Shown: in pieces, positions 3,671 to 63,121 of the stretch | Position numbering within the stretch: the stretch's first letter is position 1 | Layout of the letters: every line of letters starts with the position of its first letter | Sequence record: NC_005859.1 | Source of the DNA: Escherichia phage T5 | Reading direction: 5' to 3' (one strand) | Length of the DNA: 64,000 bases | Program-made: the position numbers and the translations under genes | The notes under the pieces: generated by a model | The model's database searches: none | Seen by the model: only the letters and a program-made list of their open reading frames with translations | What the model was told of the DNA's origin: nothing

Positions 3671-3726
3671 TTTAAAACTCCAGTCAAAGGGAAATTATAG
3701 TGGGGAATATTCCCCACTAATTAAAT

Positions 3727-4134
3727 TTATTCGCCTGCGGCTTGTTTTACTTCATCGGCAACGCCTAACAGTTGCGCCACGGCGTCCAGCGTTTCCAATT
3801 TTGCACTTTCCAGTGATGCCAGATCGTCAGCGTCTTTGATAATACCGGAATCGATGGCATGTTTTGCAATCACACGCACGTAGTGCGCTTTGCGGATAGA
3901 ACTGCCGCCGCCAACCTTGCGAGGTTTATCGCTTTTCTGATACGCTTTCGCGCTGGTCAATTTTGAGCGAACAGACACGGGAGAAGCCGCGCCAACTGCT
4001 TTTGCAATCTCTTTTAAACCGTCGCTATTTGCGAAATCTAAACCGTTTTCATTAATTAACTGCTGGTACATGGAAACAGCTTTCTGAGTGTTTTCTTCAT
4101 TCCAAGCGAATTTTGCGGTTTTAGCGTTAGTCAT
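3727..4134 (-). CDS. basic DNA-binding-like protein (possible A2)
   Basis: 135 aa (~14 kDa), basic patch KPRKVGGGSSIRKAHYVR; located directly upstream of A1 in the leftward operon; A2 assignment is inference. Confidence 0.45.
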   Translation of the reverse strand: MTNAKTAKFAWNEENTQKAVSMYQQLINENGLDFANSDGLKEIAKAVGAASPVSVRSKLTSAKAYQKSDKPRKVGGGSSIRKAHYVRVIAKHAIDSGIIKDADDLASLESAKLETLDAVAQLLGVADEVKQAAGE

Positions 4135-4229
4135 GATGTAACTCCTGTTTATTTAATTTAAGGGATAAGATTAACATAATGTTAATCGTTATATCCCCCG
4201 AACTACTGGGGGATATAAAAGTAACACTA

Positions 4230-4481
4230 TTACGCTACGGCTTCCCATTTTTCGTTACGCTGGGCAACCTTTACAACGTCGCCGGATTTAACCCGAACGT
4301 TGTAAACAGTTTTTCCGTTGTTACTCCGTTCCGTTTCAGCGTATACCGCATCAATTACATCAAACGGCATAAGCGCCGCGCCTTTAATGCGTTCGGTTTT
4401 TCCGGTTACCTCATCCGTTTTAGTAACGAAAGGGATAAAAACGGATTGACCAATTTTTGGCGCAGTAGTAACGTTTTGCAT
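4230..4481 (-). CDS. hypothetical protein
   Basis: 83-aa ORF with GGAG ~9 nt upstream of ATG. Confidence 0.5.
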   Translation of the reverse strand: MQNVTTAPKIGQSVFIPFVTKTDEVTGKTERIKGAALMPFDVIDAVYAETERSNNGKTVYNVRVKSGDVVKVAQRNEKWEAVA

Positions 4482-4683
4482 AATATAAACTCCAGTTTAT
4501 TAAGGGGGATTGTTCCGCATTACCTGCTGTAAAAGTAGTGGCAGGTAATAAGCAACAATCCGCTCGCCAATATAATCAATTTAAAGAACTCCACTCAGGC
4601 CGCTATATCCCAGTTAGGGGGCGGGACACATTATGGTAAGTGCCGACCGTCATATTTTATCAAGTTATCGCTCTCATCGAACT

Positions 4684-4974
4684 GGGTACATCTTAAAGCC
4701 TATCGGCTAGGGTGTCAAACTATTTTTTGCAGTTTTTTATGATTTTCTTTCAAGTCAATCATAATGTTTCGCCAGATCATTTCCAGACCTTGCTGGCGGC
4801 CTTTCTTGTACTGCCTAAATCGATATTTTACCGATTGCTGGGCTATTGTCAACAATTTTTTAGTAGTACCATCTAATTTTTTAGCTGGTTTACCAGTGAT
4901 CAATAAAGTTTGTTTCATATCGTCGATTCCTTATAATATATAAGTTTACCGCCGATAGACTTTAAGATGTACCC
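4684..4974. repeat. 24-bp inverted repeat pair flanking a small basic ORF
   Basis: GGGTACATCTTAAAGCCTATCGGC (4684-4707) and its reverse complement (4951-4974), 23/24 identity. Confidence 0.7.
4715..4918 (-). CDS. small basic protein
   Basis: 67 aa Lys/Arg-rich ORF lying between a 24-bp inverted repeat pair. Confidence 0.35.
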   Translation of the reverse strand: MKQTLLITGKPAKKLDGTTKKLLTIAQQSVKYRFRQYKKGRQQGLEMIWRNIMIDLKENHKKLQKIV

Positions 4975-5410
4975 AATTTTTAAAGAGCGTGGCGGTAAAC
5001 TTCCCGCCGTGTAGTTCGTCATTGCCGCCCTACGAGATAAATAATAGGGGATACCCAAAAATGGCGCAACCTTATTTTTGTAAAGAAACGTAAAGAAGGC
5101 AACACGTCCGGCGCTCACCTAAGTTTAAAGGAAACGGGCGCGCGAATACCATAAAACCTAGCAGGTTGGCAAGTAATTTTTTCCTTTATATTTGCCTTGC
5201 CCTAGTTGACAAATCTTAGAAAGCTCGTGGTGACGATAAACGGGTTATCCCCTTATGATGGGATGCCTGAAAAATTTACCGCGTCAGAAAGCGTTTTAGG
5301 CGGCTTATTTTCGATTTAACAAATATTTAACAAAAGCAAAATTGAAAAATAGTTGGAAAAGATATTGACTTTTAAAAATCAAGACTAAACGAGTTATTTT
5401 ATAAAATTAA

Positions 5411-5929
5411 TTAATTGACAATTCCAAATTCAGCTTTTTTAGTTTCTACCCATAATAATAACTCTTGTAAATCATAACCTGATTTACTAACACTTTTGTT
5501 ACTAGTAGGATCTTTAACTATAGCGCGCAAATAGTTTCTTCCGTTATTATCAACTCTAGAACCATTATAATAGATATGCTTAGGCAACTTATTAGCACGC
5601 TTATAATCTTTCTTGTTATTCATATTCTGCTTATGGTCTACTAAGCGAAGATTATTAATGTTATTATTAGCACGGTTACGATCATTATGATCGATTGTTA
5701 GATTGCTATCAATCTCACCATTAAATAATACCCATATTATTCTATGCACTGCGTATTGTTCGCCTGCTAACTTTACTCGATAGTAACCTGTGTTACTATA
5801 ATGCCCTGCAATATCACCCACCTTACTATTACCTTTCTGTACTTTCCATCTTAGAAATGATGGGGATGTTTCATCATAATAAAAGTTATCATTAGCAAGC
5901 GAATAATCTATATCTTTAAATAGACCCAT
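5411..5929 (-). CDS. HNH homing endonuclease
   Basis: 172 aa; HNH core IDHNDRNRANNNINNLRLVDHKQN. Confidence 0.8.
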   Translation of the reverse strand: MGLFKDIDYSLANDNFYYDETSPSFLRWKVQKGNSKVGDIAGHYSNTGYYRVKLAGEQYAVHRIIWVLFNGEIDSNLTIDHNDRNRANNNINNLRLVDHKQNMNNKKDYKRANKLPKHIYYNGSRVDNNGRNYLRAIVKDPTSNKSVSKSGYDLQELLLWVETKKAEFGIVN

Positions 5930-6186
5930 TGTTATAGTTTCCTTATGTTATTAATTTAATCTCTATTATATTATATCAAAACCATTAGCAAACTACCTAA
6001 TGAGTTTTTCAGGTTTAATTAGCAGACTCATAATCACTTTAAAATCCTATTAGCCAACTAACTATATTTTGTTATATAATAACTGCATAAATTAGTTAGT
6101 GAGAAACACTATCATTTAAGTTATCCACAGCCTTATACATTTTGTAAATTAACTTGACACAATAGGAAGGCTTTATAGCACTTTTA

Positions 6187-6238
6187 CACAGACTTATCCA
6201 CAGGTTATTCCACTGTATAAATATACAGGGTAAATGGA
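6187..6238. repeat. left arm of ~40-bp inverted repeat with DnaA-box-like site
   Basis: contains TTATCCACA (6194-6202) and palindrome CTGTATAAATATACAG; reverse complement matches 9420-9460. Confidence 0.65.
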
Positions 6239-6433
6239 AAACATATTATAATGATGCCCAAAATAAGCGGCCTAAAACGCTTTCTAACGAGCAAAACGCT
6301 ATAGGGTAATATTAAAGTAAAGCCTCAACGCGTCGCCCTGGTGGCTTCGCCGTGTTTTGCTCTTTACTATACCGCTGCGCGGTTAGCATAAAACTAGGCG
6401 CTAGGCAAGGAAAATAAAAAGGTAAAATAATAT

Positions 6434-6462
6434 TTGCCTATGCTAGAAAATTACCTTTATCA
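6434..6462 (+). promoter_or_regulatory. sigma70-like promoter for 6495..7505
   Basis: -35 TTGCCT, 17-bp spacer, -10 TTATCA/TATCAT. Confidence 0.45.
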
Positions 6463-6494
6463 TTCACTCACCGATTAACGAGGGAGGCCAACAA

Positions 6495-7505
6495 ATGCGG
6501 CTATATAAACCAGATAACGCAACCGTCTTAAAGGGCGCCTTGCGCAACCTGCTGGATGGTAGCAGGACAACCAGCATTAAACATTTTATTAACAAGGCTG
6601 AAACTATTCACCAAAACTTTTTTAATGATTATGATGCCTATGATATGGATAGTTTTCTACCCCTATATAAGCAGGGGGCAACGATTATCTTATATAATCG
6701 TGATTGCCATATCTTTACGGGCAGGGGAGCGGGGCCGGATACTGATTTTATTGTTGCGCAGGGTAATAATATCGTTGCGTATCATAGCAATTCAGGCCGT
6801 CAATCATTTAATATAAATAATTTTGAGCTTGTTGGGCTTGAATTAATAAACGGACTTTCTAGCCTTGAGGGATTTTTAGATGTTATCTGGAAGTATTTAT
6901 CTGCTGGATGGCATAGACCTGATAGTGATGGATCTCAATATACGGCTGTAATGGCTTTTGATGGCGACGGTAATTTTTTATTACCATCGGAATTATATCC
7001 GTATGTATATAATGAGCTAGTACAAGAAGCGGGTTTTATTTTCTGGAAAGATGAGAATCAGATCATTGACAACACGGAAAAACATGCTGTAAATTCTAAC
7101 ACTCAAAGCGTTAACACTCAAATCACTGAAAACAAAGGAAAAAATGCCATGACCAAGATCGCTAATATCGTTGCCGCTAATAAATCCGCCGTTGTAAATG
7201 CTGCAAAACTGGAAGCGGGCAAAATTGCATTAACTCAAATCACGAAAGTAGCGGCTAAAAAAGCACCATTTATGATTAAAGGTTATATTGATACGCCTAT
7301 TGGTCGGGTAGTTATTGCTAACCTGCTGAGCGTAGCGGTTGACCAGTACGCCCCTAGCAACCAAAAGGCGAAAGCGGTAGCGGGTGCAGCTATGGAAGCG
7401 GCTATGCTAGAAATGGTGCAAAGTTTTAACATCGCTGAAATGATTGATGAAATGGTGAAAGGTATTGATATTTCTACTTTTACCGTTAACACCGAAAGCG
7501 AGTAA
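6495..7505 (+). CDS. hypothetical protein (IR-flanked cassette)
   Basis: 336-aa ORF; SD GGGAGG 7 nt upstream; candidate promoter and downstream terminator. Confidence 0.65.
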   Translation: MRLYKPDNATVLKGALRNLLDGSRTTSIKHFINKAETIHQNFFNDYDAYDMDSFLPLYKQGATIILYNRDCHIFTGRGAGPDTDFIVAQGNNIVAYHSNSGRQSFNINNFELVGLELINGLSSLEGFLDVIWKYLSAGWHRPDSDGSQYTAVMAFDGDGNFLLPSELYPYVYNELVQEAGFIFWKDENQIIDNTEKHAVNSNTQSVNTQITENKGKNAMTKIANIVAANKSAVVNAAKLEAGKIALTQITKVAAKKAPFMIKGYIDTPIGRVVIANLLSVAVDQYAPSNQKAKAVAGAAMEAAMLEMVQSFNIAEMIDEMVKGIDISTFTVNTESE

Positions 7506-63062: not shown

Positions 63063-63091
63063 TTGCTTTCAGGAAAATTTTTCTGTATAAT
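63063..63091 (+). promoter_or_regulatory. T5-type early promoter
   Basis: TTGCTT (63063-63068), 17 bp, TATAAT (63086-63091), then SD and ATG 63122. Confidence 0.75.
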
Positions 63092-63121
63092 AGATTCATA
63101 AATTTGAGAGAGGAGTTAAAT

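Follow-up and report, generated by a model that had tools for sequence, protein, structure and literature searches.

Inverted repeat A of phage T5 overlaps promoter P-D/E20 and might form a long-range mRNA helix around a variable gene cassette

Features of the locus

Inverted repeat A is found in the pre-early region of Escherichia phage T5, where its two arms flank a single small gene, T5p008 (Table 1). The DNA analysed is a stretch of 64,000 nucleotides from record NC_005859.1, called the window throughout, which begins at base 1 of the left terminal repeat of T5 strain st0 (the first-step-transfer, or pre-early, DNA). Over the locus it shows 100% identity to bases 4400-5300 of AY692264. The core arms, IRA and IRA', are in opposite orientation and match at 23 of 24 positions, with one position different, as a preliminary description of this DNA had stated, and no such pair was found in 100 dinucleotide-preserving shuffles. 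With distal extensions included, each arm comprises 39 nucleotides (4669-4707 and 4951-4989; 82% complementary), and the arms are separated by a gap of 243 nucleotides. The 24-mer has no copy in the 64 kb beyond the two arms, even when as many as three mismatches are allowed.

The same description had noted a small Lys/Arg-rich open reading frame between the arms. This is T5p008, whose product has 13 lysines and 4 arginines against 2 aspartates and 2 glutamates. The IRA' core arm is located about 20 nucleotides 5' of the T5p008 ribosome binding site. On the other side of the gene, the T5p008 stop codon (TGA, 4717-4715) sits within the -35 hexamer of the promoter P-D/E20, and the left arm corresponds to about -24 to -1 of that promoter, that is, to its promoter-proximal spacer, its -10 hexamer and its discriminator. 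A second promoter, P-H22, is located inside the T5p008 reading frame and inside the loop of the proposed helix, and its transcripts carry the 3' arm only. Primer extension has confirmed that P-H22 is active in vivo as a pre-early promoter (PMC7472727). Transcripts from P-H22 and P-D/E20 lack a complete helix because both start to the left of 4989; both arms occur only in leftward RNA whose start lies to the right of 4989.

The repeat itself is not new, and has been annotated since 2005. In record AY587007 the arms are labelled 'inverted repeat A' and 'inverted repeat A'' (the Wang 2005 annotation), and a comparison of 25 T5-like phages by Davison (bioRxiv 10.1101/866236) places the area within 'Repeat Region 1', which is found in almost all of them and has no assigned function. 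As far as the GenBank records and literature examined show, the overlap with a promoter is new, and so are the promoter-like site P-x and the extension of the covariation across subfamilies. P-D/E20 ranks among the strongest Escherichia coli promoters and those in widest use, and those records and literature contain no link between it and the repeat. An Rfam scan of positions 4000-6600 at a permissive E-value matched no family.

Table 1. Positions of inverted repeat A and of associated features (window coordinates unless another sequence is named)
Feature	Position	Strand	Description
IRA core arm	4684-4707	-	GCCGATAGGCTTTAAGATGTACCC read on the minus strand; 3' strand of the proposed helix
IRA distal extension	4669-4683	-	4 x 4 internal loop, then 7-bp distal stem GAGAGCG/CGCUCUU; within the initial transcribed region of P-D/E20
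IRA' core arm	4951-4974		Plus strand reads GCCGATAGACTTTAAGATGTACCC; the minus strand gives the 5' strand of the proposed helix in the leftward transcript
IRA' distal extension	4975-4989	-	CGCUCUUUAAAAAUU; 5' strand
P-D/E20	4690-4718 (annotated span 4664-4738)	-	-35 TTGACA at 4718-4713, 17-nt spacer, -10 TAAGAT at 4695-4690; from AY692264 and a consensus scan
P-H22	4825-4852 (annotated span 4810-4867)	-	TTGACA-16-TAAAAT; from AY692264 and a consensus scan
T5p008	4715-4918	-	67-aa basic protein; Pfam DUF7416, phrog_4718; Shine-Dalgarno AAGGAA at 4932-4927
P-x	5041-5069	-	Unannotated promoter-like site, TTGCGC-17-TATTAT; predicted leftward start near 5034, giving a transcript with both arms
Leader between P-x and the 5' arm	4990-5040	-	Highly conserved, non-coding
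Local 12-bp hairpin	5002-4991 with 4953-4942	-	Perfect pairing; encloses the 5' arm in a 37-nt loop
IRB/B'	5275-5311/6260-6296		Flanks the HNH endonuclease gene T5p009 (5411-5929)
IRC/C' and IRD/D'	6098-6136/9503-9541 and 6188-6228/9411-9451		Carry DnaA-box-like TTATCCACA
Two brackets of Pectobacterium phage My1 (sequence L049)	6363-6378/6706-6721 and 6739-6776/7009-7046		Promoter-overlapping inverted repeats

Conservation of the repeat among relatives

The arms are kept in all T5-like phages examined except one, Wa28. Among inverted repeats located upstream of T5p007 homologues, this pair ranks first in each of 36 distinct relatives and in another 8 phages from GenBank. A metagenome scan returned 12 contigs, of which 10 have the repeat and the other two are fragments too short to show it; these contigs carry the same three polymorphisms as known phages.

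More distant phages keep the arrangement with other sequences. In Klebsiella Sugarlandvirus phages the arms differ from those of T5 (GCCGATAACGCTTTATTATAGAATCTCAA versus its complement, with one bulge), and complementarity is kept. Pectobacterium phage My1, which belongs to another subfamily, has two brackets in tandem whose arm sequences are unrelated to each other. One surrounds My1_014, and the other surrounds My1_013, a DUF7416 homologue, together with My1_012. In every one of these cases (T5-like, Klebsiella and My1), the downstream arm covers the spacer and -10 hexamer of a sigma-70 promoter, and the upstream arm is located 6-25 nucleotides 5' of a ribosome binding site. Each My1 bracket is also preceded by a leader motif, CGCTCTTTAACAA, in direct orientation. 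The same motif occurs in T5 (CGCTCTTTAAAAA, 4989-4977) in inverted orientation, where it makes the distal stem.

The preliminary description had proposed a search of related phages for deletion or inversion polymorphisms, and one deletion was found. The E. coli phage Wa28 (LC788710; positions 1440-1480 of our sequence L071) carries a natural deletion of both arms, T5p008, P-H22 and P-D/E20. Its junction fuses the leader of P-x (..GAAGTTTACCGC) to approximately codon 8 of the T5p007 homologue. The whole module is thus dispensable in at least one phage, and the form of the junction suggests that leftward transcription from P-x or from further upstream can serve the essential A2 and A1 genes. The T5p007 homologue of Wa28 is left without a start codon, though T5p007 is said to be conserved in all T5-like phages.

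Covariation and predicted RNA structure

To count base pairs, 20 distinct arm pairs were aligned and were read in both senses. The first My1 bracket was left out of the counted alignment (MAFFT misaligned it) and is described separately. Read in the leftward (minus) sense, 98.6% of 498 cells are paired and 7 are unpaired, compared with 29-44% paired in slid registers. Read in the plus sense, 94.4% of the 498 cells are paired and 28 are unpaired, with 28-41% in slid registers. These cell counts are inflated by the relatedness of the sequences. Changes on both sides occur at 12 of 26 pairs in both senses, and none of 500 shuffles reached any of the measures in either sense.

The leftward sense pairs better than the plus sense because differences between the arms are almost only transitions that give G·U in leftward RNA (27 cells, 8 pairs), and A·C is rare. 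Several changes are fully compensated. A C-G pair has become U-A, with the U·G intermediate common in other phages; a U-A pair has become A-U in Epseptimavirus; and in DT57C both arms have changed together from TAAGAT to TAAAAT. Paired insertions also occur, with one nucleotide gained at the same position of both arms in fp01, where the change is likewise compensated (A opposite T, so that the promoter spacer grows to 18), and in phiR201 (C opposite C). Compared with flanking non-coding DNA, the arm differences are depleted in transversions and in A·C, with 8 of 13 being of the G·U type against a background of 18% (p about 6e-4). Counted by independent sites, the strand asymmetry is modest (8 of the G·U type versus 3 of the A·C type, p about 0.06), and as a pure strand test at the level of sites it is only suggestive. 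A G·T pair is the mildest mismatch in single-stranded DNA too, which counts against reading the G·U bias as a property of RNA alone.

The RNA folding proposed in the preliminary description as a check predicts stable long-range pairing. RNAalifold, given 14 full-length regions, predicts the helix unaided and with no broken pairs, and the minimum-free-energy fold of the predicted P-x transcript retains it (z = -9). The helix comprises 24-28 contiguous pairs and, past an internal loop, the distal 7-bp stem. The local 12-bp hairpin (Table 1) might act as a competing fold or as a folding intermediate, and could trap the 5' arm during transcription.

A probable promoter upstream of the repeat

The P-x site is absent from the annotation of both T5 records and matches the promoter consensus at 8 of 12 positions. 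Its two hexamers and the start region TTATCTCGTAGG show little or no variation among phages of the genera Tequintavirus, Epseptimavirus, Sugarlandvirus and Myunavirus. The spacer between the hexamers is free in sequence and is held to a length of 16-17 nucleotides across the four genera. This pattern of conservation is a promoter signature, and P-x is probably a conserved promoter. A scan found no terminator-like sites between 5040 and 4660.

The leader that follows P-x is 97-100% identical even in some Klebsiella phages, and is more conserved than most pre-early genes. A coding explanation of the leader was considered, in the form of a 67-aa minus-strand reading frame (4915-5118) that ends in an ATGA overlap with the start of T5p008, and was excluded by frame-breaking 1-nucleotide indels in relatives. 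On the plus strand, a perfect TATAAT is present at 4932-4937, antisense to the region of the T5p008 ribosome binding site, with a weak -35 (TTGTTT) at a spacing of 16 nucleotides. A rightward start from this sequence would cross IRA'.

T5p008 and the variable cassette

T5p008 is a real and conserved gene, rather than an artefact that overlaps two promoters. Its product scores 127.7 bits against Pfam DUF7416, for which the gathering cut-off is 27, and homologues are present in Klebsiella, Yersinia and Pectobacterium T5-like phages. The gene is intact in 37 of 41 aligned relatives, and the remaining four carry different cassettes. Synonymous codon differences outnumber non-synonymous ones (479 versus 361). 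Its function is given as unknown in both PHROGs and Pfam. An AlphaFold model (pLDDT 77) comprises an N-terminal tail and a two-helix hairpin, for which a Foldseek search of the PDB returned only generic hairpins without significance. Distant DUF7177 homologues in Vibrio phages and in Klebsiella phage KP2025 were set aside, because their context is not first-step-transfer DNA. In RNA-seq data from phage Bas33 (PMC13250531), the T5p008 homologue reaches a TPM of 1232 and the T5p007 homologue 12199, a ratio of about one tenth. These values, like the Wa28 deletion, are consistent with a transcript that spans both arms.

The content of the gap between the arms varies. Where T5p008 is alone, the gap is 243-261 nucleotides. 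In chee24, fp01, ende and GSW6 it contains an extra reading frame in addition to T5p008 and measures 398-410 nucleotides. In DT57C and one relative, T5p008 is replaced by an unrelated reading frame (phrog_17446) and the gap is 217 nucleotides, and in Klebsiella phages it is 407 nucleotides long and contains two reading frames. The extra frame of chee24 and the three phages like it (about 50 aa) lies between the 5' arm and the T5p008 homologue and takes over the ribosome binding site; in chee24 it overlaps the start of the T5p008 homologue in ATGA, an arrangement typical of coupling. The stop codon of the last cassette gene (TGA) falls within the -35 TTGACA of the next promoter in T5 (4713-4718), in Klebsiella phage Boggle (sequence L039, 2074-2079) and in the second bracket of My1 (L049, about 6388-6393).

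Proposed function and alternative explanations

From a repeat that overlaps a promoter, is conserved and covaries, encloses a variable cassette and has no inverted form among the records searched, we propose that IRA' and IRA form a long-range mRNA helix in leftward read-through RNA, and that this helix brackets a swappable gene cassette as a processing or insulating module. The probability that we assign to this proposal is roughly 45%. The preliminary description had raised a long-range stem that isolates the reading frame on the transcript. This is also the reading that we favour: the pairing of the arms, their double-sided changes and their conservation outside Wa28 agree with it, and we infer that the helix folds in vivo.

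The read-through RNA would start upstream of 4989, most likely at P-x, so that both arms would be transcribed together. IRA' (4989-4951) would then pair with IRA (4707-4669) through about 28 contiguous pairs, an internal loop and the 7-bp distal stem. This would close T5p008, or whichever cassette of small genes is present, into a loop that extends from just 5' of its ribosome binding site to just 3' of its stop codon. The compactness of the genome, with the stop codon inside the -35 hexamer of P-D/E20, would make the 3' strand of the helix coincide with the core of that promoter (-24 to -1).

A near-perfect duplex of 24-28 bp is a substrate for E. coli RNase III. The helix is therefore probably a substrate too, and we infer that the host enzyme would cut it, detaching a cassette mRNA whose ends are still paired. 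Cleavage would also give the T5p007-A2-A1-dmp read-through RNA a 5' end close to that of the primary transcript of P-D/E20, and this might be its purpose. The literature searched contained neither a link between T5 and RNase III nor a map of T5 start sites. Any effect of the helix would be limited to a minority of the operon RNA, because the strongest transcripts, those from P-H22 and P-D/E20, never contain it. A more radical idea, in which RNA made from IRA' would act directly on the P-D/E20 open complex, is unsupported.

Our confidence in the RNA helix is not higher mainly because gene conversion can also maintain the complementarity of an inverted repeat in DNA. The paired insertions make conversion between the arms probable, and a repeat without function could be preserved in this way. 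IRA' might then be an inverted copy of the P-D/E20 core, either a decayed or weak divergent promoter or a decoy for RNA polymerase, that has no role as RNA and stays similar to IRA through conversion. The left arm coincides exactly with the P-D/E20 spacer, -10 and discriminator, and an intact TAAGAT is retained in the right arms of T5 and T5-like phages. Moreover, the 1-nucleotide insertions shared by both arms in fp01 and in phiR201 resemble conversion tracts, and the mosaic cassettes indicate that T5 phages recombine freely. However, the best match of the upstream arm to a -35 at a distance of 16-18 nucleotides is no better than 2 of 6, and a TG extension is absent, in all 31 distinct contexts, whereas downstream arms have a -35 that matches at 6 of 6 positions in 29 contexts and at 5 of 6 in the other three. 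In several phages the upstream -10 is broken and pairing is nevertheless kept: Klebsiella phages and the second My1 bracket have an indel within it, and in the first My1 bracket its first base has changed from T to C. Such a promoter would have no reading frame to its right to transcribe, and conversion alone leaves the G·U bias in one sense and the missing transversions unexplained. We consider a mere promoter copy unlikely. A functional second, divergent sigma-70 promoter in the right arm was rejected for lack of a -35 in any relative. The arms might instead be a pair of operators, as in the suggestion of the preliminary description that they are binding sites. A phage protein (for example, a function for pre-early shut-off that depends on A1/A2) or a host protein would bind both arms and so block P-D/E20, with a roadblock or DNA loop acting against P-x and P-H22. 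This would account for the occurrence of one 24-bp sequence twice, once over a promoter core, and the concerted change of both arms between genera fits co-evolution of a protein and its sites. In addition, pre-early shut-off needs A1 (PMC10644984), and A2 is a dimeric DNA-binding protein. The operator explanation is weakened by the spacing of the arms, since gaps of 217, 243-261 and 398-410 nucleotides conserve no helical phase, and by the 1-nucleotide bulges between arms in Klebsiella phages and My1, which would alter half-site spacing. The motif is found nowhere else in the 64 kb, including P-H22 and the rightward pre-early promoter, which are both also shut off. The two brackets of My1 have unrelated arms within one phage, and duplex DNA gives no explanation for the G·U bias. 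Paired operators appear distinctly unlikely.

The variable content of the gap, bounded by arms that are always retained (T5p008 alone, an extra frame with T5p008, the phrog_17446 frame or two frames), is also what would be expected if the arms were borders of a mobile or exchangeable cassette, whether as terminal inverted repeats of a MITE-like or IS-like element or as flanks for homologous exchange in the manner of T4-type PeSLs, promoter and stem-loop motifs that flank swapped reading frames (PMC4122927). A transposable element is at odds with the flanks, which are not direct repeats and so reveal no target-site duplication, and with the presence of only one pair in the 64 kb. Nor was an empty site with precise excision seen; Wa28, the only deletion, has other end points. 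Homologous exchange would need conserved flanks, but not flanks that are complementary to each other. We hold it very unlikely that the arms exist as cassette borders. PeSL-like exchange describes the polymorphism well, and it may simply follow from the module instead of competing with it as an explanation. Finally, inverted repeats that flank a segment with a strong promoter are suggestive of an invertible switch, here of the 243-bp segment that contains P-H22, and a DNA cruciform or a hairpin in the single-stranded non-template strand would tolerate G·T. An artificially inverted arrangement, used as a chimeric query, matched none of 458 phage records over at least 80% of its length, whereas the native arrangement matched 416 of the 458, and all 41 aligned relatives are collinear. 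The polymorphism search described above thus found no inversion, and the proposal in the preliminary description that the arms are recombination sites gains no support. No recombinase is encoded nearby: T5p008 matches only DUF7416, with a predicted helical hairpin, and the neighbouring frame is an HNH endonuclease. A cruciform with a loop of 243 nucleotides is kinetically implausible, and it would put A·C in one of its strands. Inversion and DNA hairpins are scarcely credible here.

A processing or insulating role for the helix, if real, would account for one of three conserved 'untranslated repeat regions' in the first-step-transfer DNA of T5. It would also reveal how Demerecviridae pack and exchange small accessory genes together with strong promoters in tandem, and would offer a testable case of a promoter sequence that is constrained simultaneously as DNA and as RNA. 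For annotation, T5p008 (DUF7416) is genuine, and a probable unannotated conserved promoter is located at 5069-5041.

A broader form of the proposal can be imagined, in which every T5-like pre-early unit is self-insulating. The leader of each unit would carry the complement of the core of the next promoter, read-through RNA would fold into a duplex at that start site and be cut by RNase III, and downstream mRNAs would share one 5' end. The enclosed small genes would be exchangeable plug-in cassettes. We regard this generalization as doubtful.

Relation to known systems

The proposed helix resembles the RNase III helices of rrn operons, in which the flanks of the 16S and 23S rRNAs form more than 20 bp with each other on a single long transcript, enclose the unit in a loop and present a duplex of a size suited to RNase III. 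In contrast to rrn, the unit enclosed in T5 is a small protein-coding cassette (217-410 nucleotides), and the 3' strand doubles as the core of the promoter that follows. A looser likeness exists to the RNase III sites between T7 early cistrons, which likewise combine a host enzyme with phage early mRNA. However, the T7 sites are local hairpins between genes and not brackets.

PeSL elements of T4-type phages (PMC2839356, PMC4122927) also combine an early promoter and a stem at the edges of small variable reading frames of unknown function, with indel or swap polymorphism, and the two tandem modules of My1 add to the likeness. PeSLs are local, terminator-like stem-loops that adjoin a promoter and occur in many dispersed direct copies, whereas the T5 structure would be a long-range helix with the promoter as one strand, in one or two copies per genome. 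The early promoter joined to a stem at a variable border is thus present in T5, but the local terminator stem and the many dispersed copies are not, and no consistent T-run follows the stem. Synthetic 'insulator' RNA parts, which place a ribozyme or RNase site after a promoter, have the same proposed effect of a constant mRNA 5' region; these are engineered parts, and the analogy is functional only.

Other repeats and sites in the window

Repeat A was annotated together with IRB/B', IRC/C' and IRD/D' of the T5 terminal repeat as one set of long inverted repeats of the first-step-transfer DNA, a set that is conserved in T5-like phages (Wang 2005; Davison 2020). Unlike IRC and IRD, which have DnaA boxes, are 3 kb apart and have been proposed to act in the injection stop, IRA/IRA' encloses a single cistron, overlaps a promoter and has no DnaA box. 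The gene flanked by IRB/B', T5p009, is an insertion that is missing from most relatives (Davison).

A second candidate bracket in the same operon was rejected. It consists of 1682-1708 and 3718-3744 (27 nucleotides, 78%), just outside T5p005 and A1, is not conserved in relatives and is probably due to chance or specific to the lineage. Elsewhere in the window, positions 63063-63097 on the plus strand exactly match what we take to be the sequence of the well-known promoter P-N25.
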